From: a virus
DNA length: 64,000 nt
Direction: 5' to 3' (one strand)
Virus record (IMG/VR): IMGVR_UViG_3300025450_000016
The notes beneath the pieces are model-generated. The model was not told where the DNA came from and did not search any database. It saw only the letters and a list, made by a program, of their open reading frames with translations. Each line of letters begins with the position of its first letter. Within the stretch, counting starts at the first letter, position 1. This document shows, in pieces, positions 19,588 to 50,201 of this stretch. The position numbers were made by a program, and so were the translations under genes.

Positions 19588-19616
19588 TTTTGCTCCTTGT
19601 TATTCACTATACAAGT

Positions 19617-19645
19617 ATTATAGCATTTTGGCTATTTTGGGTCTA
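19617..19645 (-). promoter_or_regulatory. Sigma70 promoter TAGACC-N17-TATAAT with extended TG
   Basis: Shares CAAAATGCTATAATA with the 17212 promoter. Confidence 0.75.
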
Positions 19646-19706
19646 CCAGAATATTAAGTGCTGTAAGTCGTTGATTTTATTGGATTTTTTACAGCAGAAT
19701 GGCAGT

Positions 19707-22816: not shown

Positions 22817-22888
22817 TTTAAGTTTCCTTAATTAAACTCCGTAGAGTTGATTTATAAAATACTGTACGCACTCGCATACAGTCAAAAC

Positions 22889-22934
22889 AGTATAAACTAA
22901 AGAAACTTAAAAGTCTGTCGCTTTTTTACAACAG
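22889..22934 (-). promoter_or_regulatory. Sigma70-type promoter CAGACT-N17-TATACT with dyad and downstream stem-loop
   Basis: Dyad CTGTCGC-T6-ACAACAG at 22915-22934; 9-bp hairpin at 22861-22882. Confidence 0.7.
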
Positions 22935-22935
22935 A

Positions 22936-24756
22936 TTACCAAATTTTGGTTTTGTACTTGTTATAGTAGTAATCTTGGCACCAAGCCCAGTCAAAGCTGA
23001 GTTTGAGTGCTTCGTAATCTCCCCCAACTGCGTCGTGATACTCGACACCATCTGCGGCACCTTGAATACAGTACTCGGCGTTTTTCCCTTCAGCCACTGT
23101 GCACCAGGTTTTGAGTCTGTGTTGAATTTCCAAGCCAGCACCCAACACCACTTCACGCTGTAGTTTCATTGTTTCACGGAAAGCACTACGCCAGGTGATC
23201 CAAGGATCCGTGTTGAAACGACTGATACTGGCGCACACCGGAACCACTTCGTGTGCTTTGCTCAAGGTAAAGTCCAATCCCGGATCGGTTTCTAACACCA
23301 GCTTCTTGTTGTACAAATTGATGTTCATGGCACCATACTCTAGACCGTTTAAGGGATTACGACTGTGAAAAATATAGTGTTTGGGTTCTTGAAAATAGTC
23401 CGGTACAAAGTCAAACTCAAATGTGGGCAACACTTCGGTCTTGGCAAATACTGCATAGAACCAGGGTGTGTCACTCAACTTGGCAGCGGCTTTGTAAGCA
23501 GCTTCACGCCCAGTGACTCCATCACTGCGTTTGGCCCAAGGACAGATACGAGCCAGTGCTTGCCAATTATCTTCAGCCATGGGTTCGCCATTGCTGATAA
23601 ACACCACGTCTGGACGTTCGTCCTGTAACACATAGGTGTTGGTGCGTTTTTCAATATAGGGATAATCGTACACTTGTACTCGCAGATGATTTTTAACTTC
23701 ACGTGGTACCAAGGCTGTGTCACCTGATCTGTTGGCACGACTCAAGATGCGATCTTTTTGACTCCACAAGCAATGCCAGGACGCAAACTTCAAATCTGCA
23801 ACTCGAGTAAACATTGCATAAGGTGCGGTGAAGTTGTAATTCTTGATTTCTTCAATTAGATTATCCGACTCATAGTAGTGTACAGGAATATCAAATCGCG
23901 CGACTGTTTGATCTTCACAATAGTTGATCACATTGAACCAATCCAGCAACTCCAAGTCCACCATTTGCTGTGTAAAACTGGGCACGTGTACATAGAATGT
24001 GTCGCCACGTGTTTGGTTACCGGATGGAAAACAGTGAATCATTTCACGCTGGTGTGGTTCTGGATGCCAGGTAAAGTCAAAATCAGTGTAGTCACAAATA
24101 CTGCTGGCAATCCATACAAACTCTGTGGTAGCCAGGTTGGCAATGCGCTTGAACACATTGAGATGATTGTCTACATAACGTGTGAGTTTGATGTCTGGGT
24201 ACCGAGCTTTCAGTTGTTGAAACTGTGCGGCACTTTCAGGATTTAAAAAATCCATATAAAATATCTGTGTGGCATTGGCTCGTATTTTTTGATCTAACAT
24301 ATACTTGATGCCAGCTGTGCCAGGATATACAGGACCGCCATCACGTTGCCATTGTGTGCCAAAGTGATACTCGTACGGCTCTTCTGTTTCGTCTGGGTGC
24401 CACGAATAATCAAACTGACTGTCATCTATGTTGTCGGGGACTGACCAAATTGCTCGATTAGGCAGTCGAGTCACTGACTGATCTGCGTGAAAATTGTACT
24501 GTCTATTGGCCACTGTGCGTCGGTTTGCCAGATACACTCCGCCGGTGCGTTGCCATTGACTAGGCCAGGTGTGTATGTGTTCTGTTTCCCAGGGAACTGG
24601 TACATAGTCAAAATCAAATCCTGTGTAGTCATTGCCCCCATAAATATACCAGTAGTGACTAGTACGACTCAACTCGGCAGCTTGATCAATTGACTCAGCC
24701 GGACGCTCAAAAGCAAATAGATTTGGTTTTGGTCCATAATAAAAAACATCAAACAT
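22936..24756 (-). CDS. Multi-repeat glycosyltransferase-like protein (GT-A-like)
   Basis: Four F(D/E)(F/Y)...P repeats; C-terminal domain homologous to 44188..45084. Confidence 0.6.
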   Translation of the reverse strand: MFDVFYYGPKPNLFAFERPAESIDQAAELSRTSHYWYIYGGNDYTGFDFDYVPVPWETEHIHTWPSQWQRTGGVYLANRRTVANRQYNFHADQSVTRLPNRAIWSVPDNIDDSQFDYSWHPDETEEPYEYHFGTQWQRDGGPVYPGTAGIKYMLDQKIRANATQIFYMDFLNPESAAQFQQLKARYPDIKLTRYVDNHLNVFKRIANLATTEFVWIASSICDYTDFDFTWHPEPHQREMIHCFPSGNQTRGDTFYVHVPSFTQQMVDLELLDWFNVINYCEDQTVARFDIPVHYYESDNLIEEIKNYNFTAPYAMFTRVADLKFASWHCLWSQKDRILSRANRSGDTALVPREVKNHLRVQVYDYPYIEKRTNTYVLQDERPDVVFISNGEPMAEDNWQALARICPWAKRSDGVTGREAAYKAAAKLSDTPWFYAVFAKTEVLPTFEFDFVPDYFQEPKHYIFHSRNPLNGLEYGAMNINLYNKKLVLETDPGLDFTLSKAHEVVPVCASISRFNTDPWITWRSAFRETMKLQREVVLGAGLEIQHRLKTWCTVAEGKNAEYCIQGAADGVEYHDAVGGDYEALKLSFDWAWCQDYYYNKYKTKIW

Positions 24757-24757
24757 A

Positions 24758-26056
24758 ATGTATAACTTATCCGTTCATTACGAAAATATCTACAACTACC
24801 TACGTACTATTATAGCAGATGCCCGGGTCGGATATCTACATCCTTTTGGGTCAACTCAACCAGAACATATAGAAATCTTGCGGGACGATTCAAATCCGCC
24901 TGATCAAAGAGATCCACCACAGCGTCACGGTCCATTGTTTATGTTTCAAGATCAAGAGCCAATTGATTTTGATTACAATCGACCCTTGTTTGATCATTTA
25001 AAATGGAAAGTACACGCACCTTGTATATTAGTTACCACCGAACAAGAAAGTGCCGATGCAGAACTGGTTTATGCAGAATACCCATTTGCTCGATTAAATT
25101 ACTTCTTTCATATATTTGCTGCAGCCGATTGGTTTCGTGGACACCAATACTTGCCAGGCCTGGTTGCTCCTGCTGACCGCGTCTTAGAAAAAACTTATAT
25201 ATCATTTAATAGACTAACCAGTAATAGACGTATCTATCGTAGCTTGCTGGTCAACGAATTGTACAAAAACAATCTACTAGACTCGGGCTATGTGAGCTAC
25301 AGTCATCATTGTCCCGACGATGGTGCATTTGACGACAACCTACGCAAAGGTGTACCTGAATATGAATTTGATCCAGCCTACATAGAAGAAGCCATTGCCA
25401 ACATCAATCAAATACCAGAATTGCGTATTGACTTTCCCGGGCAACCAATACCCAATCAAAGTATGAACCTAGGGCCACTGGAGAATCTTATGCGTAGTTT
25501 TGTTTATGTGGTAACAGAAACCTGTTACTTCCAACGCAAGACTCACCTGACTGAAAAGATTTTTAAACCCATTGTGTTGCGTATGCCATTTATATTGACC
25601 GGTTGTGCTTACAATCTAGATTACTTACGCAGTTATGGTTTCCGTACATTCTCGGACTACTGGGACGAAAGTTATGATCGAATAGAAGATCCTGTGGCTC
25701 GATTGCAGGCCATTGTGCAAGTATTACAAACCATTGATCAAATGTCAAAGGACGAACAGAAAGCCATGCTGTTGGATATGCAACCGATACTGGATCACAA
25801 TTACAATTTGTTTAACAACGAATTGGTAGATCGGGAATGGGCTAGATTAAAACAGAGTTTACGAGATATGTGCGATCTTTATAGATTTCAGTTTCCATAT
25901 AGACCCAACCATAGACTAGGGCAGGCAATTCCAATGGATTATCCTATAGATAAAAATCCCAATGCACTGGTATGGAAGGCTGAACCTGGATATTTTAATC
26001 CACACCCGTTGCCAGACGACCAACAACCGTTTGGATTTAAGATCGCCCCCAAGTAA
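24758..26056 (+). CDS. GT10 (fucosyltransferase)-like TEK-motif glycosyltransferase, inverted
   Basis: VVTET......LTEK.FKPI....PF...G....L..LR..GF.TF...WDESYD. Confidence 0.6.
   Translation: MYNLSVHYENIYNYLRTIIADARVGYLHPFGSTQPEHIEILRDDSNPPDQRDPPQRHGPLFMFQDQEPIDFDYNRPLFDHLKWKVHAPCILVTTEQESADAELVYAEYPFARLNYFFHIFAAADWFRGHQYLPGLVAPADRVLEKTYISFNRLTSNRRIYRSLLVNELYKNNLLDSGYVSYSHHCPDDGAFDDNLRKGVPEYEFDPAYIEEAIANINQIPELRIDFPGQPIPNQSMNLGPLENLMRSFVYVVTETCYFQRKTHLTEKIFKPIVLRMPFILTGCAYNLDYLRSYGFRTFSDYWDESYDRIEDPVARLQAIVQVLQTIDQMSKDEQKAMLLDMQPILDHNYNLFNNELVDREWARLKQSLRDMCDLYRFQFPYRPNHRLGQAIPMDYPIDKNPNALVWKAEPGYFNPHPLPDDQQPFGFKIAPK
24809..24838 (-). promoter_or_regulatory. Putative internal sigma70 promoter TAGATA-N18-TATAAT with extended TG
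   Basis: Lies inside the 5' end of the inverted gene and points at ATG 24756. Confidence 0.5.
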
Positions 26057-26240
26057 TACGATTCCATACACGCTCGTGTAACCAAAATAAAAATATTTTG
26101 GTCAATATTTCTGTAAAAGCAATTCCGCTGGCCAGTAATACTTGCCCGGTTATAAGCCAACTGATAACAAAGGTATCTATAGTTCCGGTAATTCGCCAGC
26201 TTATTGCTTTTGCCAAACTACGTATAGGCTGATCACTCAA
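26037..26240 (-). CDS. DUF2061-like small membrane protein
   Basis: RSLAKAISWR...T and HERVW..I.WG signature. Confidence 0.8.
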   Translation of the reverse strand: MSDQPIRSLAKAISWRITGTIDTFVISWLITGQVLLASGIAFTEILTKIFLFWLHERVWNRITWGRS

Positions 26241-27069
26241 GTCCTAGAGTCTTTCTAATCTTAGTGGCGCTGATATCTGTTACACTTTCATCAAAAGTTT
26301 CTTCTGCGTGAGTATAACCAACTCCACGACCCCACCCAATGTGTACAATATTGGGTACCACTTGTATTTCGTACTGTCCTTGATAGATAGGATCCAAATC
26401 ACGACGAATAAATGCCTTGACTTTTTCTATTTCAAACGGATTTGAGCCTTGCCATCCTTGTACATCGCGTACTTGAATAATCACTTGCCCTGTACGTGCT
26501 ATCAGTCGGTCGAACAGCGCACGGTGTCCATCGTGCCACGGTTGCCAACGTCCCAACATTTGTACTGTTTCGCGTTTCCAATCAAATACAGGACGGCGAC
26601 GATTGGCCACAATATGTTCGCCAATAAACTCGGCCCACTTTTCTGCATTCTGCTCGGTGATGCGGAAATCGTAATGTTCGGGTTCAACAAATGCTTTGTT
26701 GGTATCAGCATAACGACCTTCGCGGATAGTGTCTACCCAGATGGTCCAGTCGGCCTTGAAATTGTTGCGTTGCTCAACTAAGGGTGCAACAAAGTCACAG
26801 ATCACATAGTCACCGCCAGCTTCCATACTGAATTGAAACATACGCAAGCTCTGACGAATACGTCCATCATTTGAAAAATCCCAGTCGTTGTACTTGCGAC
26901 GTACATCATCGGCATTGAACCAGTTGACTTTGACTTGATTGTCCATTGGTTCCATAATAGCACGACTGTAACTGATGGAACCGTGTAGTTCTAGGTATTT
27001 TTTAAGTGCAGCCGCCAAGGTTGTTTTGCCTGAGCCAGGAAGGCCCATTATTAGAATACGTTGACTCAT
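26233..27069 (-). CDS. APS kinase (CysC)-like domain fused to HxGH nucleotidyltransferase
   Basis: GLPGSGKTT, NADDVR, DFS..GR; GRWQPWHDGH, ISATKIR; AAGGA RBS before MSQRI. Confidence 0.8.
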   Translation of the reverse strand: MSQRILIMGLPGSGKTTLAAALKKYLELHGSISYSRAIMEPMDNQVKVNWFNADDVRRKYNDWDFSNDGRIRQSLRMFQFSMEAGGDYVICDFVAPLVEQRNNFKADWTIWVDTIREGRYADTNKAFVEPEHYDFRITEQNAEKWAEFIGEHIVANRRRPVFDWKRETVQMLGRWQPWHDGHRALFDRLIARTGQVIIQVRDVQGWQGSNPFEIEKVKAFIRRDLDPIYQGQYEIQVVPNIVHIGWGRGVGYTHAEETFDESVTDISATKIRKTLGLE

Positions 27070-27080
27070 TGATTTTTCCT

Positions 27081-27647
27081 TTACCAAATATCCGATGGAA
27101 TTTCTGTGGCCCTGAAGCCTTGATACAAACTGTATCTTTTGTCTACTACAAAATTTTTCATACCGTGTGGTGTACGTGTTGGATACAACATCATATAACC
27201 ACAATTGGGGCGGAATGGTACTGTGTGCCAGGCATCCTGGTCGTAACAGTAGGTTCCCATATTTTCATTGCCTTCAGACAAATACACCTGCACATTGACA
27301 TAATGATTTGGGCTTACATCACCATCGTGTATGGTATTGATATATCCATCAGGGTCACGCCATAATTGCGGATTGTTTTGATACAACTTAACACCAGTAA
27401 CTGATTCAGCAAATTCAATAACAGGAGCTAGCTCAATGCGTATTTGTTCACACAAGTGGTTGTACAATGCCTCTGTTTCTTCTGTTTCTTCTGGGCGAAA
27501 CTGTAGTCTAGGAAAAGCAGAGTTGCCGTCATATTGTTTTAACCAATTGGTGGTGTCTCTGTCAAAGACTGACACCAACTGCTGGAACAAGCTGTTGCTA
27601 AAAACATTGTCAAGACGATAAAATTTTTCTGTAACTGTTACGAACAT
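27081..27647 (-). CDS. Putative 2OG-Fe(II) oxygenase
   Basis: LWRD.....HDGD, QVYL, GT, PF.PN.GY, distal HG and R.SLY. Confidence 0.6.
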   Translation of the reverse strand: MFVTVTEKFYRLDNVFSNSLFQQLVSVFDRDTTNWLKQYDGNSAFPRLQFRPEETEETEALYNHLCEQIRIELAPVIEFAESVTGVKLYQNNPQLWRDPDGYINTIHDGDVSPNHYVNVQVYLSEGNENMGTYCYDQDAWHTVPFRPNCGYMMLYPTRTPHGMKNFVVDKRYSLYQGFRATEIPSDIW

Positions 27648-29113
27648 ACTCGTGCTCCATAGTGCATTTCAAAACGATCAGCATCTTCTCTGTCGTTCAC
27701 AATGGGTTCACCTTTGATATTAAGACTGGTGTTTAACAGCATAGGACAACCTGTTACCACATACCATTTTTCTAACAGTTCTCTAATTCCCGAACCATCT
27801 CGTGGTACTGTTTGTATACGACTAGTGCCGTCGCGATGAACGATAGCAGGAAATAAGTCAGGATCCCTGCAACGACCGATGACTTGCATATACCTAGTGT
27901 CAACGAAACCGCTAGGCATATCAAAATACTCATTGACATATTCCTCCAAAATAACTGGCGCGAACGGTCTAAATTCTTGTCTACGTTTGATTGCATTTAC
28001 TTTGTCCTTTATATCTGGTCCTCTGGGGTCGGCGAGGAGACTTCTGTTTCCAAGGGCTCGGGGGCCAAATTCTGCTCTTCCGGAGGCCACCCCCACGAGT
28101 CTATCACTGAGTAAGCAATCAAGGACGGCATTAACAGGATACGGGCCGCTGATTTCTGTACCAAGGAATGCGTTTTTGAACTCAATTGGTCCGCCGTAGG
28201 CCAGTGCGGCTGCTCCGAGACTACTACCAGCATCGCCAGGATTAGGCATAATCCAAATCTTTTCAAAATACTCACCGAGGTTTCTATTTGCTAAACAATT
28301 AAGGGCTACACCGCCCTGATATACTAAATTTGTGCTCCAGCCAAAATCTTTGGCACGACGCATAACATTATATATCAAATTTTCACAAAAGGCCTGACTG
28401 GAACTGGCAATATCGTATTCCAAGTGCTTGGCCAAAAACTCTTCATCTACTCCTAGATGCAAATTTTGTGAAAATTCAATATTCCATTCGTTGGTCATCA
28501 CTGCCGATTTTATCTGTGCCGCGGCCTTGGGTTCTCCATAAGCAGCCATTCCCATTAGGATATATTCGTCTTCGTTGGGTTTCAATCCCACACGCTTGGT
28601 CATGGCACTATAAAATAGTCCTATGCTGTGCGGATATCGCTGACCCCACAGTCGCTTATACTCAGCACGACCATCAACATAGTGTGCGCCCCATATGGTA
28701 ATACTGTCCCATTCGCCAATGGCATCGATCACAACCACAGTGGCTCGATCAAATGGACTGGTTTGAAAACCAGCAGCTGCGTGACTCAGATGATGCCCGT
28801 GTGTGCTGATTGGAACATTGTCAAAATACCCACGTAACTGTTGCCTGAGTACTTGTCTAGTGGTCAGCTTGTTCCATTCTACACCTTGTCCCGAGTACCA
28901 CTGACGTAACTGCTTTTTCCAAGGAGTTTCGTAGTAGGCAATATGATCAATGTGGCGACCATCTGATAACTCCCAAAACATTGCAGGGTGCAGATTGGCA
29001 TCGTTTTTGATCTTGCTGTACCGTTCGGCGTGACCAGCGTACACTATTTCGCCATTGTTGATCACCGTGGCGGATGCATCGTGGAAACCGGCGCTGATTC
29101 CTAGTATGTTCAT
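27638..29113 (-). CDS. NodU/CmcH/TobZ-family O-carbamoyltransferase
   Basis: ILGIS..FHDA, HH.SHAA, DAIGE, GGVALN, GD.G, EFGPRALGNRS, FRPFAP, LLNTSLN..GEP. Confidence 0.95.
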   Translation of the reverse strand: MNILGISAGFHDASATVINNGEIVYAGHAERYSKIKNDANLHPAMFWELSDGRHIDHIAYYETPWKKQLRQWYSGQGVEWNKLTTRQVLRQQLRGYFDNVPISTHGHHLSHAAAGFQTSPFDRATVVVIDAIGEWDSITIWGAHYVDGRAEYKRLWGQRYPHSIGLFYSAMTKRVGLKPNEDEYILMGMAAYGEPKAAAQIKSAVMTNEWNIEFSQNLHLGVDEEFLAKHLEYDIASSSQAFCENLIYNVMRRAKDFGWSTNLVYQGGVALNCLANRNLGEYFEKIWIMPNPGDAGSSLGAAALAYGGPIEFKNAFLGTEISGPYPVNAVLDCLLSDRLVGVASGRAEFGPRALGNRSLLADPRGPDIKDKVNAIKRRQEFRPFAPVILEEYVNEYFDMPSGFVDTRYMQVIGRCRDPDLFPAIVHRDGTSRIQTVPRDGSGIRELLEKWYVVTGCPMLLNTSLNIKGEPIVNDREDADRFEMHYGARVCS

Positions 29114-29211
29114 TTATAGATAAATGGATCTCGTTTACGTAGTTCTTTTAATTTTTTACGATAACGTAATTCTAAAGTGATTTTATTGTAAAGATTTCGT
29201 AACCATTGCAT
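29110..29211 (-). CDS. 33-aa basic peptide ending RDPFIYK (not in ORF track)
   Basis: MQWLRNLYNKITLELRYRKKLKELRKRDPFIYK; its TGA overlaps the carbamoyltransferase ATG. Confidence 0.7.
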   Translation of the reverse strand: MQWLRNLYNKITLELRYRKKLKELRKRDPFIYK

Positions 29212-29998
29212 TGAATTGATCTTTCATTATGTGTGCTGCCGCTGTGTGTGCTGCTTCTAGTGGATGGGTAGTACCTATTGGGTATTTATTCTCCAAAGCC
29301 CACTGATAAAAACCTCTTGGGTCCGTTGTTTGTGTTGCTTCTGTTCCGGCTGGAAACCAAAACCAATTGGCTTGATCCCGGTGTATTTGTTCAGTTAGAC
29401 TATGTATGCTAGCATCTGCTGTTTGTATTGTATGATTGTACCATATGCAATTATCGGCACAGGTAAACAAATAAGGTATACTGTTGGTTTTTAAATAATT
29501 TTGTAAGTATGTAATTTCTTTGAGCGTGGTATAAATTTCCCAGTACTCGCTGTCGCCCACGTTCTTATAAAAGGATTTGGCAAAGTCGGCTATACCGTTT
29601 TCCTTGGCTTTGGTTATATTTTTAATTTGCTCATACAAAATATTGCTATTTTGATTTACAAATTCTTTTTCTATAGTTGCAGGATCATCCCGTACAGTCC
29701 ACGGAGTAATAGTATACCAAGGACTGCCGCGTTGATTGGTATGATAATTAAAGCGAAATTCATAGCGACCAGGAAAGGTCCACGATACTATCACAGCAGG
29801 ACGTTCAGGCCATATGGCTTCGCATTCAGCAATAACACGATGTGCTATGCCATCATTGCCTAAACCGGGCCAGGCCACGCATTGATACTGGTGTTCTTGA
29901 GACAACAAAGCCGCAAAGGTGCTTTGACTGTGTCTGCCGTTACAGTCTGCCAACTCGCTGCCGTATACGAAACTGTCACCTCCGGCTACTATAATCAT
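29183..29998 (-). CDS. SGNH-like protein
   Basis: GDSFVYG, PG.GN..I, WT...R.E, HP.E.AH. Confidence 0.7.
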   Translation of the reverse strand: MIIVAGGDSFVYGSELADCNGRHSQSTFAALLSQEHQYQCVAWPGLGNDGIAHRVIAECEAIWPERPAVIVSWTFPGRYEFRFNYHTNQRGSPWYTITPWTVRDDPATIEKEFVNQNSNILYEQIKNITKAKENGIADFAKSFYKNVGDSEYWEIYTTLKEITYLQNYLKTNSIPYLFTCADNCIWYNHTIQTADASIHSLTEQIHRDQANWFWFPAGTEATQTTDPRGFYQWALENKYPIGTTHPLEAAHTAAAHIMKDQFNAMVTKSLQ

Positions 29999-39748: not shown

Positions 39749-40458
39749 ACCAAGTTTCTCTCTTTAAGGTTAGCAATAAGGTATTTGACAAATTCTGTAT
39801 GCGCTTCAGGACCGGGATGGGTTGGATCGGCCCAGCTGTCAATTTCGCCAGCAATCTTGTGCGGAGTTTGTAACACTAGGTTTTGTTTGTCGATCATATC
39901 ATACAAGTGTGAATTGACTCGCAGATCTTTTAACTCTCTCACAGAACAAAACAGGTATGGCTGATTCATTGATTTTAATACACCTTGCAGTCCTATAATT
40001 TTGGTAAGACTTCTATGATAATGGCTTTCATAATCGGTATGATTGTAAAATTCGTCAAACAGTTGTTTGACGCTTTCACCTTCGTTATTGATGTAACCGC
40101 AACCAAATACCCAATCCTTTTCCACATAGTCTTGATCGTTTTCAGGCCAAATAACTTTGCTGGGCCAATCATTCTGTCGGCTTTGATATAGGCTGGTGTA
40201 AGTAGTATCAGCAAATTTGGTGATGTCTCTGACTTTGATATCAAACCGTCTAAAGTCGCACCACATGACCATTACTAGATCGTATTTTCTTTGTGCTAAC
40301 TCGGATATGGTAGTGGCATAGATATATTCGTTACCTGCTCCGGCCTGTGCAAGATTGATAATATCGCACTCGATATTTTGTTCCAGTTGCTCTTGTAGTA
40401 TATAAGGCCACGATCCAGCACCTCTAGCAACACTGGGTCCATTGACTAAAATTTTCAT
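39745..40458 (-). CDS. SGNH-like protein
   Basis: NGPS..G, NLA..GAGN.YI, W....R.D, D..HPG..AH. Confidence 0.7.
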   Translation of the reverse strand: MKILVNGPSVARGAGSWPYILQEQLEQNIECDIINLAQAGAGNEYIYATTISELAQRKYDLVMVMWCDFRRFDIKVRDITKFADTTYTSLYQSRQNDWPSKVIWPENDQDYVEKDWVFGCGYINNEGESVKQLFDEFYNHTDYESHYHRSLTKIIGLQGVLKSMNQPYLFCSVRELKDLRVNSHLYDMIDKQNLVLQTPHKIAGEIDSWADPTHPGPEAHTEFVKYLIANLKERNLV

Positions 40459-41355
40459 TTAAAATCTCCTGGGTAATTGTGGGCCGGCCCATACACGGCC
40501 AAGTGGTTGTTTGGTCATTATCATTTCATTCACTGTATTGGTCCACTCTACTGTATTGCTGTTAATTTCTATTTCAGGTGCTACCGTATTCAAGTACAAC
40601 AAGTATTCGGCTGGCATTGGATGTGTGTTGGTTCTAAATAACAAACGCTTGCTGAATTGATGTTTTTCGTTGATCTCTACCTTGACACGATTGTCGACTC
40701 CACTAAAGTCCTGCTGAACAAATTGTTCCCACGTTGGCCAATTGGCGCCACGTAAAACTGTGTATTCTTGTTCAAGTCCTTTTATGTCTACATACCCCTT
40801 GCGACTGTACCAATCAAAATTGAATATTGCTTCGTATACGCTGGGTTTAACTGCAGCTAGTTCGTTGGCGTATAGTGTGGTTATTTCGTTGTCTATACTA
40901 AAAATTTTAAAAATATTATCATCAGGTACATTAAACGGCACTATACTAAAAAACTTGTACTCACAGCCAATTGAATCCAGTACAGCTTTAGCCGCAGACA
41001 AGTGTGCCATATCTCGAATTAGGTAGCCGGTGGGGTCGGCAAATTTTGCAACAAAATCTTCGCTGTAGGTTGTTTGATTATAGATACTACCCGGAGTAAT
41101 CCATTGTTCACTTGCAACCCAACGGTCCTCGCGGCCTATGCTGCTCCACATAATCATCACAACATCATCCCGGGTGATACGGTTACGTTTGTGGCATTCC
41201 ATTAGGCTATAAAAAATAAAACTATTGCCTGCACCATCTTGTCCCCAATTGGAATACGATTTGTACTGACGTCCCACTATGTCGGCCCAGGTTGGATAGT
41301 ATATGCTGTTAGTAAAGCTACAGCCAAATGCAAAGAATCTTTGATCTTGTTTCAT
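40459..41355 (-). CDS. SGNH-like protein
   Basis: FGCSFT, W.D, GAGN, MWS...RED, C-terminal HP. Confidence 0.7.
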   Translation of the reverse strand: MKQDQRFFAFGCSFTNSIYYPTWADIVGRQYKSYSNWGQDGAGNSFIFYSLMECHKRNRITRDDVVMIMWSSIGREDRWVASEQWITPGSIYNQTTYSEDFVAKFADPTGYLIRDMAHLSAAKAVLDSIGCEYKFFSIVPFNVPDDNIFKIFSIDNEITTLYANELAAVKPSVYEAIFNFDWYSRKGYVDIKGLEQEYTVLRGANWPTWEQFVQQDFSGVDNRVKVEINEKHQFSKRLLFRTNTHPMPAEYLLYLNTVAPEIEINSNTVEWTNTVNEMIMTKQPLGRVWAGPQLPRRF

Positions 41356-42191
41356 TTTGTAATTACGTTATTGTAATGTAAAACTATGCTTTCGTCATCC
41401 TTGGCTGTGGGGCACATAGTACATACACGATGTGGTCGACCATAATTGTTGAGGAATGCTGCAATTGCCTCATCTGGGCTATCGGGTGTAATGTACTGCC
41501 CGCGATATGGTTTCCACGCCGGATCTGTTATGCCAAAACGATCTAGTGTTTGTTCTAACCCGCCCAACGTACTACACTTGTACAACTTGCCCTGAAACAT
41601 CAGCGGACATTTTTGTTGCATACAAATTTCAAACGATTCTGCTGGATTACTATTAAACGGCATCATATTTGGATAGTCGTTCTTATAGTACTTGATAAAT
41701 GTCAGTGGGCGATTGACTTGAAATCGCAGGCCGTTTGTGGTCTTGTAACGATAGATGCCAAACTCGTACACAGGTTCCCATTTGTACATTGAAAATATTT
41801 TGCGTATCACTGCTTCTACACGCTCACTGTGTTGATGTGCAGTAATCTTAAAAACAAAGTTACCCACTTCGTGTGCTGTTTCTAATACATCCAAGTGTCG
41901 GTCCAGCAGTTCACCGTTGGTACTAAAGCGTATGGGACTTGTAGGCAACAGTTCTCTTAGTCCACGTATCCATTGCTTGAGCTCGGGATTGATCAAGGGT
42001 TCGCCGCCCATGATGCCAAAGTCTTCGATATCCATACGTGGCAACCAAGATTCAATTTCTCTGCGACCGTCCTCCCATTTGACATAACCTGTGTGCTTTA
42101 GGTCAGCGTAATTGCTGCACCCAAGACAACTTAGATTACAGAATTGTGTAACCATCATTTCTACAAACGGCAAGTGGTGTTTAGTTGTCAT
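41352..42191 (-). CDS. Radical SAM protein with C-terminal Cys cluster
   Basis: CNLSCLGC, GGEPL, TNG; C....C.....LYKC...C..C. Confidence 0.9.
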   Translation of the reverse strand: MTTKHHLPFVEMMVTQFCNLSCLGCSNYADLKHTGYVKWEDGRREIESWLPRMDIEDFGIMGGEPLINPELKQWIRGLRELLPTSPIRFSTNGELLDRHLDVLETAHEVGNFVFKITAHQHSERVEAVIRKIFSMYKWEPVYEFGIYRYKTTNGLRFQVNRPLTFIKYYKNDYPNMMPFNSNPAESFEICMQQKCPLMFQGKLYKCSTLGGLEQTLDRFGITDPAWKPYRGQYITPDSPDEAIAAFLNNYGRPHRVCTMCPTAKDDESIVLHYNNVITK

Positions 42192-43248
42192 TTACAAAGA
42201 TCTTTTCTACAGTGGTAGTAGTCAACGACAAAAGTGTTTGATAGTTGTGCTCAAATATTTCTTGCATATCTGCAAGTGCTCGGGCCATTTCAGCCGGAGT
42301 CCAACGACTTATTGTTTCTAATAATTTACTAACTTCGTGAATACGATTGGCTAATCCGTACTCGTCGTATCCTTCATCCCAATACTTGTTAAAAGTACAA
42401 AATCCTAAACGACGAAGATTGGCCAAATGATTGCGAGGAGTAACTGAAACAAAAGGTCTACGTGCAATCATTGGTCGCCAGGTCTTTTCAGTACAAAAGA
42501 AAACACCATCGGCCATATAAGTTTCGTGTGCCACATCAACAAAAATTGAATTGTAATAATTCAGTATGTTTAAATTGTTAGGCATCTGTATAGGATAACA
42601 ATCTTGACTTTGGTTGATGTAGTTGCCTTTGCCAGAGATAAACTCCACGTCCTCGGCAATGGTTCTAGGGCAGTCTTGTAAAAACGCAACCACCTCAGGC
42701 AATATGTCACAACCAAACTCAACCAAATCTTCTAGTCCCACGTAATCAACAAGGTCCTCGGATTTTCTCAGATAATGTGTGCCTATTCCGCAATTATAAG
42801 TTTGCAAAGTTTTGTCTGCGTAACGACTGTGTAACAATGCAGCTGTCCATAATCGGTTCCAGTTACTTTTGCCAACAAAATGACCAAAATGATATGTTGG
42901 AGCAAATTCTGGTGTGACAGGATTTTGTCTTATCCATCCACGTATGCGAGTCAGTTCATACCAGGCTGTGGCCACACGTTGTATCTGATACGATTCATGA
43001 TTCTCCAGCATATTGCCAGTGCGTATGGTAACACGCTGTTTGGCATAACCGGTATGATCGCAAAATCTATCTAGTACATTGTATAGACCATTGGCTCTAA
43101 ATGATGCTGCTTCGGGAGTGATGTCAATCACAATGTTTTGATCGTTTTTTAAACAATCGTACATATAGTGTACCAGGGCATCTTTTAACCAAGTCTTGTA
43201 GTCGCTGCCGGCGGCCACACGATATGATCCAGTTGTTTCATTCAACAT
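42181..43248 (-). CDS. GT10-like TEK-motif glycosyltransferase
   Basis: HET......FF.TEKTWRP.....PF......L..LR.LGF.TF..YWDEGYD. Confidence 0.6.
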   Translation of the reverse strand: MLNETTGSYRVAAGSDYKTWLKDALVHYMYDCLKNDQNIVIDITPEAASFRANGLYNVLDRFCDHTGYAKQRVTIRTGNMLENHESYQIQRVATAWYELTRIRGWIRQNPVTPEFAPTYHFGHFVGKSNWNRLWTAALLHSRYADKTLQTYNCGIGTHYLRKSEDLVDYVGLEDLVEFGCDILPEVVAFLQDCPRTIAEDVEFISGKGNYINQSQDCYPIQMPNNLNILNYYNSIFVDVAHETYMADGVFFCTEKTWRPMIARRPFVSVTPRNHLANLRRLGFCTFNKYWDEGYDEYGLANRIHEVSKLLETISRWTPAEMARALADMQEIFEHNYQTLLSLTTTTVEKIFVNDN

Positions 43249-44191
43249 AATTTATGGTTTTTGAAAACTTTTTTTCGATTAGTAAATTGTAATTGTGATC
43301 TAGTATTGGTTGCATATCAGCGTACATTTGTGCCAGCTGATCTGTTGATCGAGACGATAGCGTATCAATAAGATCGAGAATCTTAGTATATTTATGTTTA
43401 ATTCCGTAGCCATCATAGTCTTCATTCCAGAAGCTGCCAAATGTTCTAAAGCCCATTTGTCTTAGATGTATCAGGTGGCATTTTGGTCCCATTGTTATAA
43501 ACGGTTTTTTTAACAGCATTGGGCGAATGGTTTTTTCTGTGGGAAAAAAATTACGTCCATTCACAAAAGTTTCAGCCACTATGTCTATTAGAAAGTCTTG
43601 ATAAAAATTGGCCAATTGTTCTGTGTGCTGTTGAGTTGACACCCCAATGGTGTAACCATCTTGATTTTCAATTTGTACAGGGAAATGATCGGCGGCCAAT
43701 AAAAAGTTCCGGGCCGATGGCAAATCAATTTCAAACAATCGTTGCATTTCAAATAACCGGCGGTCAACATCGTCGTGTGGATTAGAACGAAAATTAATTA
43801 CAGATTTGTCTGCGTGGTTAATTTGCAAATGCCCAGCAATGCCCATACGATTCCACGTGGCTCGATTATACAATGCACCAAATATTTTTCGACGATTCCA
43901 AACCTGATACGGTGTATAGTCTGTGTTGCCAGTGGTATAAAAGAATCTAAAAGCCGAATCGTGTACACGTATTTGATAAACCGGGTGATACTCAACCACG
44001 TTACCAGTCACAATAGTTACCGATTTGAATCTAAAACAATCCAGCAGTTCGTATATGCCCAGGGATTCCAAACACCCACCTTCGTAGTTGGTATTTAGAA
44101 TAATATTTTGATCTTGATTGCGAGCCAAAAAGGCAATCAGCTCCAGCCGATTGAATATATGGTTATCGTTGATGTTTAAAAATAGCGTCAT
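43238..44191 (-). CDS. GT10-like TEK-motif glycosyltransferase
   Basis: VAET......FPTEKT.RP....KPF...G......LR.MGF.TF..FW.EDYD. Confidence 0.6.
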   Translation of the reverse strand: MTLFLNINDNHIFNRLELIAFLARNQDQNIILNTNYEGGCLESLGIYELLDCFRFKSVTIVTGNVVEYHPVYQIRVHDSAFRFFYTTGNTDYTPYQVWNRRKIFGALYNRATWNRMGIAGHLQINHADKSVINFRSNPHDDVDRRLFEMQRLFEIDLPSARNFLLAADHFPVQIENQDGYTIGVSTQQHTEQLANFYQDFLIDIVAETFVNGRNFFPTEKTIRPMLLKKPFITMGPKCHLIHLRQMGFRTFGSFWNEDYDGYGIKHKYTKILDLIDTLSSRSTDQLAQMYADMQPILDHNYNLLIEKKFSKTINYVE

Positions 44192-45084
44192 TCCCTTGCC
44201 ATTGGTCCTTTATTTTTAAAATTACTACGATAGTGATATTTAAAAAAACGACTTTCCTCTGCATCCATATCCACAATAGGCAGACTCAAACGCATACGCA
44301 ATTTGTCTCCGATGTCTCGGCACTCGTCGGCGCCGTGGTCTTTGTATTGCAGCCATAGCTCTGCCAAGGCATCAAAATTTTGTACTTGGCGATAATCCCA
44401 GTCTCCCAGCATTGTCATATATGTGCCAAGACGTGCACCATATATGGCCCAAAAGCCATTGTTGGCATCTGCACCCACTGTTTGCCACACACACAAATGA
44501 TCGTAGTTGCGATTGTTAACCTTGCTTTCAAACTCCAGTAGGCTTGGCTTGGCTCCACGATCTAAACACATTTTAACACCTTCTCTAAATCCGGCACGCC
44601 AGGCTTGAAAAGGAGTGCCGTTGGGATAGGTGGTTGAATAGCAGTCGGCCATGGCCCAGTAGTTGGGATAAAAACAAAACTCCACATCGTTTTCTGCTGT
44701 GCCATCTGAGTTTTCGTGAGTACGCATTGCATAAACAAATTCTTTGGTCCAGCAACTCATACCACCGTTGCCGTACATCAATCCATTAACAGCGTTGCGA
44801 GCCCGCCAACGAAAAACGCAAGAGTCATTAGTATCATTGAGGGCCAATTGGAGATTGAAGAATTCAGGATCAGGAATGTTATCCCCATCGATAAGAACAA
44901 AACGGTCTGTGTCGCTAGCGTCTGCAGCCGCTTTGTGAGCGGCGTCACTGCCTTTAACTCCGTCCACTCTTTTGGCCCACGGAACCATGTTTGAGATTTG
45001 TATCCAGAATTCTTCTTTTCTTGGTTCGTCATAGGTTAAAAATATGCAGTCTAAATCTGCAATGTCAATTATTTTTGTACTCAT
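44188..45084 (-). CDS. GT-A-like glycosyltransferase
   Basis: D.IFL.YDEP, DGV.G..AAH.AAA..S.T..F..IDGDN (DxD motif). Confidence 0.65.
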   Translation of the reverse strand: MSTKIIDIADLDCIFLTYDEPRKEEFWIQISNMVPWAKRVDGVKGSDAAHKAAADASDTDRFVLIDGDNIPDPEFFNLQLALNDTNDSCVFRWRARNAVNGLMYGNGGMSCWTKEFVYAMRTHENSDGTAENDVEFCFYPNYWAMADCYSTTYPNGTPFQAWRAGFREGVKMCLDRGAKPSLLEFESKVNNRNYDHLCVWQTVGADANNGFWAIYGARLGTYMTMLGDWDYRQVQNFDALAELWLQYKDHGADECRDIGDKLRMRLSLPIVDMDAEESRFFKYHYRSNFKNKGPMARE

Positions 45085-45430
45085 AATATTCAGTTTCTTG
45101 TGCCGTTTCGTTTTCTTCCAATATTAGTCCTGCGTGATTTTTTACCACACAATGGCCTTTTGTGCCACGTTTCAATAGCACTCGGTACTTGTTGTCGGGG
45201 TCTTTTTTTACCAGTTTGCCATCAACTACAGTATATAAAAAATATGTATTGTAGATAGATTTATCAACCACTATGTAATTGCCAGACTCGGGGTGGTTTT
45301 GCATCGAGCAACCGACAATGTCTCCAAGCTCGTCATAATAAAATCTATGTTCAATCACCGGCACTGGTATTTCCTGTGCGGCCATTACTGCGTTAACTTC
45401 TTCCCAAAATTTAATTTCTTCTGGACTCAT
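45065..45430 (-). CDS. Hypothetical protein
   Basis: Coupled ORF; RFYYD..G.I, V.DGKLV. Confidence 0.7.
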   Translation of the reverse strand: MSPEEIKFWEEVNAVMAAQEIPVPVIEHRFYYDELGDIVGCSMQNHPESGNYIVVDKSIYNTYFLYTVVDGKLVKKDPDNKYRVLLKRGTKGHCVVKNHAGLILEENETAQETEYYEYKNN

Positions 45431-46271
45431 AGTATTCTATCAATTCTTTGGTTGCGTATTTTTTGTCATAGTAGTGAACTGGATGGTATTGATTTTGATT
45501 GTTAATACGTATCATATCACCATCACGTTCGGCTACCACTGTTTCTAACCAGCTACGTGCATCACTCCAATTTTGTATGCCTGACTTCATATGTACAAAA
45601 TTGATAAAATCCATTGAAGGAATAGTACATAGCTCTTCGCCAATCAACAACGCTGTTACTGCATAAAGCACATCGGTGCTGGGAGTTTCCTCTCGACAAT
45701 TTTTAAATAAGTCTCGAACTTCTGCCCAGTTACGGTATACTGTTTCTGCCAAGGCAAAAAAGTTAAACGCTTCTTGACTGTATCTAAAATACATCAAACC
45801 ATTGTACACATCCGGCAATTCGTTATCGTCAAAAAATTGTCGATATTTTCTTACATCACTGGGTTTTCCCTGGTAGTTTTTACATCCTGTGCTGAGCACT
45901 ATATTGCGTAGTCTAAAAGCTGGCCACCAGTGATCTATACTGCCAGTAAACAACAAATCACTTTCTAGTTTGACAGTTTCTTTAAATGGCGATAGACGTA
46001 GTGCTTGATATTCATTAGCCAGTTTCCAATTGCTGGAAGGGTCATTATTATCGGTGGGCAAATCAATAATATAATCAAAAGTATTACGATGAAGGTCATT
46101 TACTTTCTCCCGTGTGGCCGCATCAACAATTACCGCATACCGGTTATTTTTCTGCGTTGCCTTGATGTTAAGAGCTTGCAGGTAAGCCAGCTCCAAATAA
46201 TCTACTGATGCTGTGTTCTGTGCAAACGTAACAAATCCTTGAGGTTCTCTACTCACACATGGTCTCCACAA
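45411..46271 (-). CDS. GT8-like glycosyltransferase
   Basis: Y...A...A..IK, SPF.ET..LESDL, Y.GL.YF, TD...A, FVHMK; start may be slightly downstream. Confidence 0.6.
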   Translation of the reverse strand: MWRPCVSREPQGFVTFAQNTASVDYLELAYLQALNIKATQKNNRYAVIVDAATREKVNDLHRNTFDYIIDLPTDNNDPSSNWKLANEYQALRLSPFKETVKLESDLLFTGSIDHWWPAFRLRNIVLSTGCKNYQGKPSDVRKYRQFFDDNELPDVYNGLMYFRYSQEAFNFFALAETVYRNWAEVRDLFKNCREETPSTDVLYAVTALLIGEELCTIPSMDFINFVHMKSGIQNWSDARSWLETVVAERDGDMIRINNQNQYHPVHYYDKKYATKELIEYYESRRN

Positions 46272-47094
46272 ATTGTTTAAACGAGTCAGTCAGCAGGTAA
46301 TCTTTATCTAATATATGCAGGCCTTGACGTGGCAGAATTGATGTTGTTGGATAAGTTCCATCTGACGACAAGGTATGGTTAATTTTTAACAGACTACCGA
46401 CAGGTTCTATAGATTCAATTTCGTGATAGATACTGAGCATTGTCCAAGGAATACTTTCTGATTCGTTTAGGCAGTAGCCGTTTAATATATTGTTTGCTAT
46501 GGCAAACGCATAATCATTTCTAAATCGATCGGTGGTTATATTATACAGAGCTCGATAATATCTGTAATTTCTTTGTATGCGTCCCACTAGATCAAACAGC
46601 ATACGACTGCGTTCACGTTTTCTAAACAACACCACTGTGGCCCATACAAAAGGTAAACTGGTATTGCCCATGACATCGTTATCATTGCCGGATGTTGATT
46701 GATTATGATGCATCAATTGATAATCAAATTCTGTTTCAAACAAGGTATTGATACTGCGGTCCAACACAAGATAATCGGTATCCAACAATACAGTTTCATC
46801 GTACGGGCTTAATTCATAAGCCAAGTATCGACCAAAATTGCGCCAGGCTATGGTTTGATTGTTGATAGCACCACGATAATTTACCTGTCCAGCATCGGGA
46901 GTCAGTCGAATGATGTGATCGTATGCAAAGGTAGGATTGCTGTCCAAATCTGTCACAATGGTCACAGGTAATCCTAGATTGTGTTGTATTAATCGACTGG
47001 ACTGATCGGCTATGGCAACATAATCTACTTTTTCGGTATTAAAGGCAAATACCAGTACGCCTCTAGACACGTCGGATACGTCGGAGTTCTGCAT
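46249..47094 (-). CDS. GT8-like glycosyltransferase
   Basis: G.L.FAFN, AY.LSPYDET.LLDTDY (DxD), WATV..F, RND.AF.IA, H. Confidence 0.65.
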   Translation of the reverse strand: MQNSDVSDVSRGVLVFAFNTEKVDYVAIADQSSRLIQHNLGLPVTIVTDLDSNPTFAYDHIIRLTPDAGQVNYRGAINNQTIAWRNFGRYLAYELSPYDETVLLDTDYLVLDRSINTLFETEFDYQLMHHNQSTSGNDNDVMGNTSLPFVWATVVLFRKRERSRMLFDLVGRIQRNYRYYRALYNITTDRFRNDYAFAIANNILNGYCLNESESIPWTMLSIYHEIESIEPVGSLLKINHTLSSDGTYPTTSILPRQGLHILDKDYLLTDSFKQFVETMCE

Positions 47095-47383
47095 ATTGTT
47101 GATGCCAGGTATTCATTACCTGCTGATAGTGTTCGGTGGCCATTTCAAGAAATGCCTGCTGATTGATTTTTATTGGATTACCGTAGGTATCTTCCAAAAA
47201 TAAACTGTCCGGATCTCCGCGCCAGGTTGATACAAAAGCATACAATTCGGGTGTAATTTTAAACAGTCCGCCGTTGCAGGCCATATGTAAATCGGCCTGT
47301 ATTTTTTCCCGTAAGATTTTTTTATTGGCCTGGTAGTTGGTAGCACGACGTACTTCGGTTGTAAGTTTTTCGATTTCGTTCAT
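47063..47383 (-). CDS. Hypothetical protein, first gene of the cluster
   Basis: 106-aa ORF directly after the promoter. Confidence 0.7.
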   Translation of the reverse strand: MNEIEKLTTEVRRATNYQANKKILREKIQADLHMACNGGLFKITPELYAFVSTWRGDPDSLFLEDTYGNPIKINQQAFLEMATEHYQQVMNTWHQQYAELRRIRRV

Positions 47384-47391
47384 GATAGAAT

Positions 47392-47437
47392 AAAAGGTGT
47401 AGATAGTTATTATACTATGCTACACCCTTAAGGTCAA
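47392..47437 (-). promoter_or_regulatory. Sigma70 promoter TTGACC-N17-TATAAT whose -10 lies in an inverted repeat (possible terminator overlap)
   Basis: Minus strand AAGGGTGTAG-C-ATAGT-ATAATA-ACTAT-CTACACCTTTT. Confidence 0.75.
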
Positions 47438-48402: not shown

Positions 48403-48419
48403 TTTATTTCCCTTTGTAC

Positions 48420-50153: not shown

Positions 50154-50170
50154 CTTCTATCCTTTGATAA

Positions 50171-50178
50171 TATTTATG
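50171..50178 (-). promoter_or_regulatory. Late promoter-like CATAAATA
   Basis: Intergenic, just upstream of fibre ATG 50153; similar motifs at 52176-52183 and 55808-55815. Confidence 0.55.
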
Positions 50179-50201
50179 CTAATATTATTCATTTTTGCGT
50201 C

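Follow-up and report, generated by a model that had tools for sequence, protein, structure and literature searches.

Positions 22936 to 47383 of a 64-kb stretch of viral DNA (the window; bases 9735-73734 of the 133-kb IMG/VR record IMGVR_UViG_3300025450_000016, rated 38% complete by CheckV) hold a block of genes for radical SAM enzymes, candidate glycosyltransferases, a carbamoyltransferase and SGNH-like proteins, next to the tail fibre genes of a phage whose structural genes resemble those of Rak2/Atu_ph07-type jumbo phages. The block comprises 24 open reading frames (ORFs) of at least 100 aa and one conserved ORF of 33 aa (29110-29211). The original prediction for this locus had counted about 27 tightly coupled genes; the count is lower, but the coupling holds inside the block, where 23 genes between 47383 and 26233 all lie on the minus strand and overlap or abut with a largest gap of 8 nt. 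Beyond 26233 follow FTa on the plus strand (24758-26056) and then X606 on the minus strand (22936-24756), which ends at a hairpin. The distance of about 65 nt from the last tail gene was given correctly, the gap after the last fibre-like gene being 65 nt. All-against-all BLAST comparisons define four sets of paralogs: six of the radical SAM enzymes, FTa-d (320-430 aa), D281/D286, and GTA298 together with the C-terminal domain of X606. None of 26 proteins has a hydrophobic transmembrane segment, and PHROGs gave no match for 14 of the cluster proteins. In the list below, N_Twi stands for membership in the NCBIfam family NF033640 (N_Twi_rSAM, twitch domain-containing radical SAM protein; cut-off 170 bits), and gene-presence counts refer to 46 related loci with full 10-kb flanks.

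47409..47437, minus strand: TTGACC-17 nt-TATAAT, predicted promoter of sigma-70 type; lies between u317 and u106 (65-nt gap)
47063..47383, minus strand: u106, small helical protein whose gene opens the block; found in 45 of the 46 full loci, no family match
46249..47094, minus strand: D281, GT8-like GT-A candidate, paralog of D286; weak glycogenin profile matches
45411..46271, minus strand: D286, GT8-like GT-A candidate; Atlas features GT8/Nucleotid_trans 0.95, weak glycogenin matches
45065..45430, minus strand: u121, small conserved protein; 46 of 46 loci, no family match
44188..45084, minus strand: GTA298, GT2-like GT-A candidate with invariant DGDN; Glyco_tranf_2_3 E 0.0036, 46 of 46 loci
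43238..44191, minus strand: FTd, GT-B-fold glycosyltransferase by its model, viral family; AlphaFold2 model pLDDT 93.6 with GT-B matches
42181..43248, minus strand: FTc, GT-B paralog, 31% identical to FTd
41352..42191, minus strand: RS7, radical SAM protein without N-terminal twitch domain, in the variable part; Radical_SAM 4e-14, 4 of 46 loci
40459..41355, minus strand: u298, SGNH-like (GCS ... HP), in the variable part; motifs, member of the joint SGNH profile
39745..40458, minus strand: u237, SGNH-like (GPS ... DPTHP); motifs and profile, homologs beside the carbamoyltransferase gene in the phages RsoM2USA, AG-345-D19 and Mosig
38363..39748, minus strand: RS6, N_Twi radical SAM; NF033640 290 bits
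37027..38376, minus strand: RS5, N_Twi radical SAM; NF033640 296 bits, 51% identical to RsoM2USA gp202
35705..37030, minus strand: RS4, N_Twi radical SAM; NF033640 398 bits, SPASM match at residues 41-105
34507..35712, minus strand: RS3, N_Twi radical SAM, recent duplicate of RS2 (45% identical); NF033640 350 bits
33303..34520, minus strand: RS2, N_Twi radical SAM; NF033640 335 bits
32348..33313, minus strand: FTb, GT-B paralog by paralogy
31045..32355, minus strand: RS1, N_Twi radical SAM; NF033640 293 bits
29976..31055, minus strand: u359, core protein with predicted cyclophilin-like barrel and helical insert; 46 of 46 loci
29183..29998, minus strand: u271, SGNH-like (GGDS ... THP); motifs and profile
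29110..29211, minus strand: pep33, basic peptide of 33 aa ending in DPFIYK; stop overlaps the CT start (ATGA)
27638..29113, minus strand: CT, NodU/TobZ-type carbamoyltransferase; Carbam_trans_N and _C, phrog_1601 1.8e-97, 45 of 46 loci
27081..27647, minus strand: u188, the originally predicted 2-oxoglutarate (2OG) oxygenase; no matches, 4 of 46 loci
26233..27072, minus strand: KIN, fusion of a P-loop APS-kinase-like kinase and an HxGH nucleotidyltransferase; phrog_10255 5.5e-43, 15 of 46 loci
24758..26056, plus strand: FTa, GT-B paralog by paralogy on the opposite strand, with the same inversion in relatives
22936..24756, minus strand: X606, three N-terminal repeats and a C-terminal GTA298-like domain (residues 373-571, 28% identical to GTA298)
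22861..22882, minus strand: terminator-like hairpin after X606, 9-bp stem followed by a T-rich tail
47449..50153, minus strand: flanking genes u317 (G/S/T/N-rich, fibre-like) and TF577 (tail-fibre-like)

The motif TTGACC-17 nt-TATAAT (47437-47409) is the sole match to TTGAC-N17-TATAAT in the 133-kb contig, and similar motifs are found in relatives: upstream of the u106 ortholog a promoter score of at least 10 out of 12 is reached in 36 of 66 relatives compared to 15 of 330 control windows, and a score of at least 11 in 14 of 66 relatives compared to 1 of 330 control windows. Similar sites of the form (T/C)AGACx-17-TATAAT precede the downstream non-structural genes for an ATPase and a VWA protein (15931-18966), and no sigma-70-type motif of the promoter kind is found at the fibre genes upstream of the block. 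Because a consensus promoter lies in the 65-nt gap at its head, the block is, as read from the DNA, a transcription unit of its own with a predicted host-type promoter; it adjoins the tail genes, yet it is probably not co-transcribed with them, and its adjacency to the fibre genes therefore does not imply co-expression. Sigma-70-type (host-type) promoters in phages usually serve early or middle genes. That the block has its own promoter, and that this promoter is kept in relatives, weakens the logic of a late structural operon. Generic promoter and terminator scans of positions 17000-36999 gave no more sites than shuffled sequence, a caution that extends to the hairpin at 22861..22882. A reading in terms of T4-type late promoters was rejected, the T4 late motif TATAAATA being missing from the window; two fibre genes have ATAAATA 24-31 nt upstream, and the 9 occurrences of this motif in all are too few for a late-promoter call.

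A search with RS5 returned more than 598 IMG/VR stretches, of which the best 80 are 66-86% identical. Among the 46 loci with full flanks, the two GT8-like genes, u121, GTA298 and u359 are present in all, u106 and CT are each present in 45, and every locus has four to seven N_Twi radical SAM genes with a mode of five. The order is fixed: fibre gene, u317, u106, the two GT8-like genes, u121, GTA298, an insert, RS6, RS5, RS4, RS2/3, RS1, u359, SGNH-like gene and CT. Variation is found in the number of GT-B genes (0-6) and SGNH-like genes (0-7) and in the presence of KIN (15/46), RS7 (4/46) and u188 (4/46). Linkage to fibre genes in related phages, which had been proposed as a check of the prediction, is conserved, with a TF577-like gene upstream of the block in 38 and u317 in 43 of the 46 loci. 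In five relatives the identity of RS5 (82, 78, 77, 69 and 68%) matches that of the baseplate-like protein (86, 80, 67, 65 and 66%), from which it follows that the block enzymes evolve as slowly as core virion proteins. This distribution marks the block as a core function of the clade whose periphery varies between strains, as would be expected of a glycan locus, and what is new here is the fixed clade-wide core of five N_Twi paralogs, an invariant protein with a predicted cyclophilin-like fold, an invariant peptide and a predicted promoter of its own.

Seven radical SAM enzymes had been predicted, and each of the seven gives a Pfam Radical_SAM match, in four cases above the gathering score, and contains the CxxxCxxC motif. 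RS1-RS6 are full-length members of NF033640 with 290-398 bits (RS3 was scored at 350 bits by a six-frame scan), and RS7, with 30 bits, is not a member. RS1-RS6 carry four extra cysteines in their first 60-100 residues, before CxxxCxxC, and RS1-RS4 have a Pfam SPASM match at the N-terminus; given the six full-length matches, this N-terminal position of the auxiliary cluster is a hallmark of a curated family and not an artefact. A profile of the six paralogs matched 24,018 clusters at 50% identity with E values up to 1e-3, with many double or triple tandem fusions among them. Many metagenome homologs (P0121-P0147), for instance, naturally combine two or three complete radical SAM units in tandem (790-1,466 aa), mirroring the tandem gene arrays. 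Our literature searches returned no paper on any reaction of N_Twi_rSAM.

Other contexts in which the family occurs connect it to sugar genes and to protein-binding repeats. Natural fusions join N_Twi_rSAM members to GT2 (P0174), to TPR and to Sel1 domains. On a metagenome contig of 29 kb (L094), five GT2 genes and a GTA298 homolog are interspersed among nine radical SAM genes, and on a bacterial contig a TPR-fused member lies near genes for SDR, sugar C-methyltransferase, RmlD, GT2 and GDSL proteins; the bacterial context rests on these two informative contigs, three others being short or phage-like. On the contig studied here, three further genes lie outside the window, about 40 kb past the block (88970-90079, 93052-93594 and 94028-95299, all on the plus strand); two encode full-length N_Twi_rSAM proteins (296 and 244 bits) and one has another radical SAM match, so that the 133-kb contig has ten radical SAM matches. 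The KVP40-like Vibrio phage K566 (OZ196521.1, 19959-37356) has five N_Twi-type radical SAM genes among hypothetical genes, and these are near NAD-salvage and ribonucleotide reductase genes, not tail genes.

The four proteins originally described as GT10-like are true paralogs by BLAST, and the AlphaFold2 model of FTd (pLDDT 93.6) has a GT-B fold; their assignment to GT10, however, remains unproven, as 51 members of the family searched against Pfam with E values up to 1 matched neither Glyco_transf_10 nor any other glycosyltransferase family, and a sequence and profile search of the PDB gave no useful match. Elsewhere, a member of this GT-B family is fused to a UDP-glucose/GDP-mannose dehydrogenase domain. 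For D281 and D286, predicted to be GT8-like, the profile matches in the PDB (16 in total, E 0.04-1) are all to glycogenin and cover the nucleotide-binding half up to the DxD position, and the Atlas language-model features of D286 fall in GT8/Nucleotid_trans clusters at 0.95 with about 164 shared features; 42 members of the family gave neither a GT8 match nor any consistent family in Pfam. The GT8 assignment is suggestive. The two GT-A-like proteins of the prediction are GTA298 and X606. GTA298 is the most conserved protein of the block (70% mean column identity, invariant DGDN), matches Glyco_tranf_2_3 below the cut-off (E 0.0036), falls in Atlas clusters automatically named GT2-like and had no match in a profile search of the PDB, and X606 is linked to it by 28% identity in its C-terminal domain; the call is suggestive for both. 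Residues 1-370 of X606 consist of three repeats of about 100 residues, seen by eye, with the pattern D(F/Y)xGFDFxxxP..W...H.(W/F)P......GG and no family match in Pfam and PHROGs scans.

The identification of CT as a NodU/TobZ-type carbamoyltransferase is unambiguous: Carbam_trans_N (6e-38, 131.6 bits) and Carbam_trans_C (3.5e-46, 157.3 bits) are both present with scores above the Pfam gathering scores. With 135 bits against a cut-off of 1000 for the NodU equivalog NF041651, CT is a member of the family and not an ortholog of NodU. u271, u237 and u298, which the original prediction had called SGNH proteins, contain SGNH block I and block V motifs, and their joint profile matches, at E 1e-3, TAP/GDSL esterases including E. 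coli thioesterase I, most of its 17 matches being of the GDSL/SGNH type; none of the three has a Pfam match, and we refer to them as SGNH-like. KIN, which likely starts at the ATG at 27072 and not at the TTG at 27204, is a fusion, as had been noted, but its relation to APS kinase is a distant one. The P-loop domain matches Pfam APS_kinase over part of the model (8e-07, 29.6 bits compared to the required 21.1) and APS-kinase domains in the PDB (E 0.009), yet reaches only 25 bits against the 138.7 of the APS kinase equivalog TIGR00455 and is thus APS-kinase-like only. The second part is a nucleotidyltransferase: GRWQPWHDGH and ISATKIR correspond to the HxGH and ISxTxxR signatures of cytidylyl/adenylyl-transferases, with NMNAT-type matches over residues 213-284. 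These features suggest that KIN combines a sugar (or polyol) phosphate kinase with a nucleotidyltransferase rather than being an enzyme of 3'-phosphoadenosine 5'-phosphosulfate synthesis, and the sulfate chemistry that had been considered finds no support inside the block. The same applies at the sequence level to the hydroxylation step assigned to u188 (27081-27647): there is no match in Pfam (E up to 2), PHROGs or PDB sequences to support a 2OG oxygenase. The model of u359 (pLDDT 88) shows a cyclophilin-like barrel with a helical insert, for which a fold search gave middling Z scores and no functional match, and a search of the PDB with the family profile gave nothing useful. u106 and u121 had no family match in the library scans.

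The peptide pep33 (MQWLRNLYNKITLELRYRKKLKELRKRDPFIYK, ORF 29110-29211) is encoded in 63 of 80 loci with an invariant C-terminal DPFIYK, and in 54 of these 63 loci its stop codon overlaps the ATG of the next gene (ATGA); in 32 loci this next gene is of the u237 SGNH type, and in 28 it is CT. The peptide is predicted to be a basic amphipathic helix without a Cys- or Ser/Thr-rich core. An ortholog is present in the cultured Ralstonia jumbo phage RsoM2USA (MG752970.1), where an unannotated ORF between gp201 and gp200 (19014-19136) ends in ...IRKQDPFIYK; it is kept there although CT in that phage is only 45% identical. A proposed identity of pep33 with DUF5989/SxtK was rejected, as the contig has no PF19451 match at E up to 1. 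In a complex prediction of RS5, CT and pep33 with the peptide scored, ipSAE was 0.48 and the best of three controls 0.00, which is weak support: of 80 solved complexes 58 reach the mark for a pass, as do 2 of 110 mismatched pairs, counts that hold only roughly for a run with its own alignments and three chains, and 7 of the 80 solved complexes and both passing mismatches pass at 0.60 or under. At least 97% of the contacts are shared between the runs, and the pLDDT of the partner is at least 72. When CT was replaced and RS5 kept, ipSAE fell to 0.00; owing to this loss the predicted partner is CT and not RS5, and if pep33 binds anything here, the models indicate that it would bind the carbamoyltransferase.

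The genes around the block provide its genomic context. The upstream side, which has the higher coordinates, holds a gene for a 2,727-aa virion protein, a baseplate-like gene, four fibre-like genes (48420-55126) and u317, all on the minus strand; u317 encodes 317 aa and is the gene nearest to the head of the block, and TF577 and the next three genes upstream have PHROGs fibre and structural matches. Proteins of Sinorhizobium phage Phosso, Agrobacterium phage Atu_ph07 and Salmonella, Escherichia and Klebsiella jumbo phages share 40-50% identity with the baseplate-like protein (55131-55817), and relatives rated complete have genomes of 316-374 kb. Three of the fibre-like proteins encoded at 48420-55126 (minus strand) share an N-terminal domain, phrog_15511, and differ in their C-terminal parts; a common anchor with divergent C-termini fits interchangeable receptor-binding modules. 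On the other side of the block, an HNH endonuclease gene (20852-21301, minus strand) separates it from the ATPase genes, where a MoxR-like ATPase (phrog_1297, 1.5e-95) is encoded beside a DUF2201 metallopeptidase/VWA protein (15931-18966, minus strand). Sugar genes for two SDR epimerase/dehydratases, a DegT aminotransferase and a PIG-L deacetylase are found at 3918-7510 (minus strand). They are part of a longer series (3918-10028, minus strand) in which SDR, DegT, PIG-L and the second SDR are followed by a canonical thymidylate synthase and two GDSL-type proteins, i.e. sugar genes interleaved with nucleotide metabolism. The stretch was found solely in freshwater DNA metagenomes, all from one year, several of which may be its source; the sequencing-run search listed no RNA datasets that hold it, and megablast of 20 kb of the stretch against cultured phages gave no match.

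Using hidden Markov models built from the families in the window, we found modules of related genes in three other phages. RsoM2USA encodes CT (gp199), three SGNH-like proteins (gp200, gp201 and gp203) and an RS5 ortholog (gp202, 51% identical). In the marine virus AG-345-D19, CT is accompanied by two SGNH-like genes and one N_Twi radical SAM gene. In Pelagibacter phage Mosig, a tail-fibre gene and VrlC flank a region in which a u237-like gene and CT lie beside genes for MoaA-like radical SAM proteins, DegT, methyltransferases and oxygenases.

Combining the gene content with the genomic context, we consider it probable that the block directs the assembly of a glycan and its tailoring by radical, carbamoyl and acyl chemistry on a cytoplasmic acceptor. 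The glycan-tailoring reading is based on the glycosyltransferase leads, the fusion of N_Twi_rSAM to GT2, the contig with nine radical SAM and five GT2 genes, the bacterial contig with sugar genes, the dehydrogenase fusion, the recurrence of CT and SGNH-like genes in three other phages and the sugar-nucleotide genes, and the cytoplasmic acceptor on the finding that no protein has a transmembrane segment. The multi-step assembly and tailoring put forward in the original prediction is thus retained on account of the GT-B fold, the GT8 and GT2 leads, CT, the SGNH-like proteins, KIN, the sugar genes at 3918-7510 and the fusions, whereas its sulfation and 2OG-dependent hydroxylation steps find no support. 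Taking domain families, GT-B fold, operon structure, promoter motif and conservation as what is shown, we infer the chemical steps, their order and the acceptor as follows: (i) nucleotide-activated sugars would be supplied by the host and by the two SDRs, DegT and PIG-L (3918-7510) together with KIN, (ii) the invariant GT-A-type set of the two GT8-like proteins and GTA298 would build a constant core, (iii) the GT-B transferases (0-6 per genome, four here) would attach strain-specific residues, (iv) the five to six twitch-first radical SAM paralogs would each abstract a hydrogen from a sugar C-H bond, leading to epimerisation, oxidation, deoxygenation or decarboxylation as catalysed on sugars by BtrN, AprD4, NeoN and BlsE, (v) the NodU/TobZ-type enzyme would O-carbamoylate a hydroxyl, possibly aided by the DPFIYK peptide, and (vi) the SGNH-like proteins would attach or strip acyl groups. 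As a whole, the proposal that a self-promoted operon of soluble cytoplasmic enzymes assembles and chemically edits an oligosaccharide, with a phage-made protein as the most likely acceptor, is one that we put forward tentatively, and with slightly less than even confidence. That the acceptor is specifically a virion or fibre protein, with the fibres as first candidate, is a possibility that we rate somewhat lower; a virion-linked role is favoured by the conserved synteny with fibre genes and by parallel islands in T4-like marine phages, both of which are associations only. In a more specific and more speculative variant, which strikes us as doubtful, the five conserved radical SAM paralogs would perform radical editing of a new type on an assembled glycoconjugate, each changing a single position in a sugar chain whose primer is a peptide or protein made by the phage; priming could possibly occur on the tyrosine of DPFIYK by the glycogenin-like GT8 pair and would give rise to a novel glycopeptide or glyco-decoration.

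Several observations weigh against this proposal. Adjacency to the fibre genes is the sole argument for virion proteins as the acceptor, and the sigma-70-type promoter, which the fibre genes lack, probably places the block outside the late structural transcript. The N_Twi_rSAM family is without a known reaction, and no enzyme of the block has a demonstrated substrate. The TPR and Sel1 fusions and the invariant peptide suit a protein or peptide substrate equally well as a sugar. The scores behind the GT8-like and GT-A calls are weak, and those of the FTd model tie among GT10, OGT, POGLUT and phage DNA glucosyltransferases. Finally, in the module of RsoM2USA no match to the models of the block's glycosyltransferase families was found.

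The last three of these points are also relevant to alternatives in which the product is not a virion glycan. Given an invariant peptide, the product could be anchored to or derived from it: DPFIYK would be a scaffold or precursor that is modified by radical SAM enzymes, carbamoylated and, in this clade, glycosylated, or the product could be a free aminoglycoside-like pseudo-oligosaccharide. Mycofactocin is made in a comparable manner from a peptide with a radical SAM enzyme and a GT2, and the set of PIG-L, DegT, twitch radical SAM enzymes, a TobZ-type carbamoyltransferase, glycosyltransferases and a kinase mirrors aminoglycoside pathways. Presence of pep33 in 63 of 80 loci, its translational coupling in 54 of 63, its persistence in RsoM2USA beside a module without matches to the block's glycosyltransferase families, the TPR and Sel1 fusions and the weak ipSAE of 0.48 are all consistent with such a role. 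The predicted contact, however, is with CT and not with a radical SAM enzyme, and pep33 could be an accessory subunit; moreover, a basic amphipathic helix lacking a Cys- or Ser/Thr-rich core, the absence of a DUF5989/SxtK match and the failure to find a recognition element of ribosomally synthesized and post-translationally modified peptides, a protease, an exporter or a membrane segment in any protein lead us to regard a peptide-based product as unlikely. DNA hypermodification, in which the GT-B enzymes would glycosylate a base, with the radical SAM, carbamoyl and acyl enzymes then working on the attached group, and restriction would be evaded, was named in the original prediction and is in our view rather unlikely. 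It would agree with the solubility of all block enzymes, with a promoter suited to early expression and with the structural tie between FTd and the DNA glycosyltransferases of T4 and HY126, and KIN has a parallel in the dual-function AfhE of HY126 (PMC13326640). The only thymidylate-synthase homolog in the window is a canonical ThyA (the best 60 PDB matches are all thymidylate synthases, E 8e-84 and weaker, with PPCH and the dUMP-type Asn), and three relatives rated 100% complete each have one ThyA (352-358 bits) and no divergent second copy. A hydroxymethyl-pyrimidine route is disfavoured by this and is not evident, although the ThyA test does not reach the flavin-dependent 5-hydroxycytosine route (PMC13326640). 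Eight glycosyltransferase candidates and five radical SAM enzymes far exceed any known base modification. We know of no GT8- or GT2-like fold that acts on DNA.

Alternatively, the enzymes could remodel the host surface by altering lipopolysaccharide (LPS), capsule or S-layer glycan during infection and in that way block superinfection. Analogous islands have been interpreted as serving host O-chain modification, and GT8-like enzymes are common in LPS synthesis (PMC7029224); an early-type promoter would suit this function as well. A lipid-linked surface pathway is disfavoured, however, by the solubility of all enzymes (0/26 proteins with a transmembrane segment), and among the matches from Pfam, PHROGs and NCBIfam scans, in which several proteins stayed without assignment, there was no family of lipid-carrier transferases, flippases, polymerases or ligases. 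Moreover, the core is conserved like structural proteins, whereas editing specific to a host should vary by host. We consider host-surface remodelling very unlikely, and continue to favour a glycan built and edited on a cytoplasmic acceptor.

The block places N_Twi_rSAM, a family of about 24,000 clusters with no known reaction, in a fixed and conserved context from which testable hypotheses can be derived. If its product decorates virions, the pathway would exceed every other virus-encoded glycan pathway of phages in complexity by a wide margin and would bear on host recognition and on the resistance of particles to proteases and other damage; if the product is on DNA or a peptide, it would represent a new class of hypermodification or phage natural product. 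As the freshwater clade is uncultured, the minimal module of RsoM2USA, with the DPFIYK peptide, SGNH-like genes, CT and the RS5 ortholog, offers an experimental entry point in a cultured phage.

The components of the block are from known superfamilies, and comparison with known systems indicates where it resembles them and where it differs. RS1-RS6 resemble NF033640 proteins over their full length, with four N-terminal cysteines followed by CxxxCxxC; different from these is that here five to six paralogs occur in fixed order inside an operon with glycosyltransferases and a carbamoyltransferase. BtrN, AprD4, NeoN and BlsE are twitch radical SAM enzymes that act on sugars, the first three in aminoglycoside pathways. 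With these pathways the phage shares both carbamoyltransferase domains and auxiliary-cluster radical SAM enzymes in the company of glycosyltransferases, an aminotransferase and a PIG-L deacetylase; however, the twitch domain is N-terminal here and C-terminal there, the NodU cut-off is missed, and no genes for inosamine or 2-deoxystreptamine were seen. FTd approaches T4 BGT and AGT and the HY126 glycosyltransferase in structure scores, in a tie with GT10, OGT and POGLUT, but has no sequence similarity to them, and no hydroxymethylase was found in the complete relatives. Chloroviruses glycosylate their virions with their own glycosyltransferases, and mycobacteriophage virions are reportedly glycosylated by self-encoded ones (Freeman et al. 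2023, cited in PMC12801897). Soluble phage glycosyltransferases encoded beside structural genes are common to those systems and this one, yet there one to a few glycosyltransferases act without radical SAM, carbamoyl or acyl tailoring on virions shown to be glycosylated, and here the likeness is one of genes alone. A further parallel is the host recognition cluster of pelagimyophages and cyanomyophages, in which glycosyltransferases (GT8 being the commonest), radical SAM cassettes and sugar enzymes are encoded among tail-fibre genes (PMC7029224). The original prediction knew of no characterised phage pathway of this complexity, and this holds within the literature searched; islands of glycosyltransferase and radical SAM genes at the fibre genes of marine myophages are nevertheless known, having been described without a shown function (PMC7029224). 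The block resembles them as an island of this type among fibre genes, with the instance in Mosig also including CT, an SGNH-like protein and DegT. It differs in that the host recognition cluster is hypervariable and belongs to T4-like phages (Kyanoviridae), whereas the block described here is found in a Rak2/Atu_ph07-like phage and has an invariant core and a predicted sigma-70-type promoter of its own.

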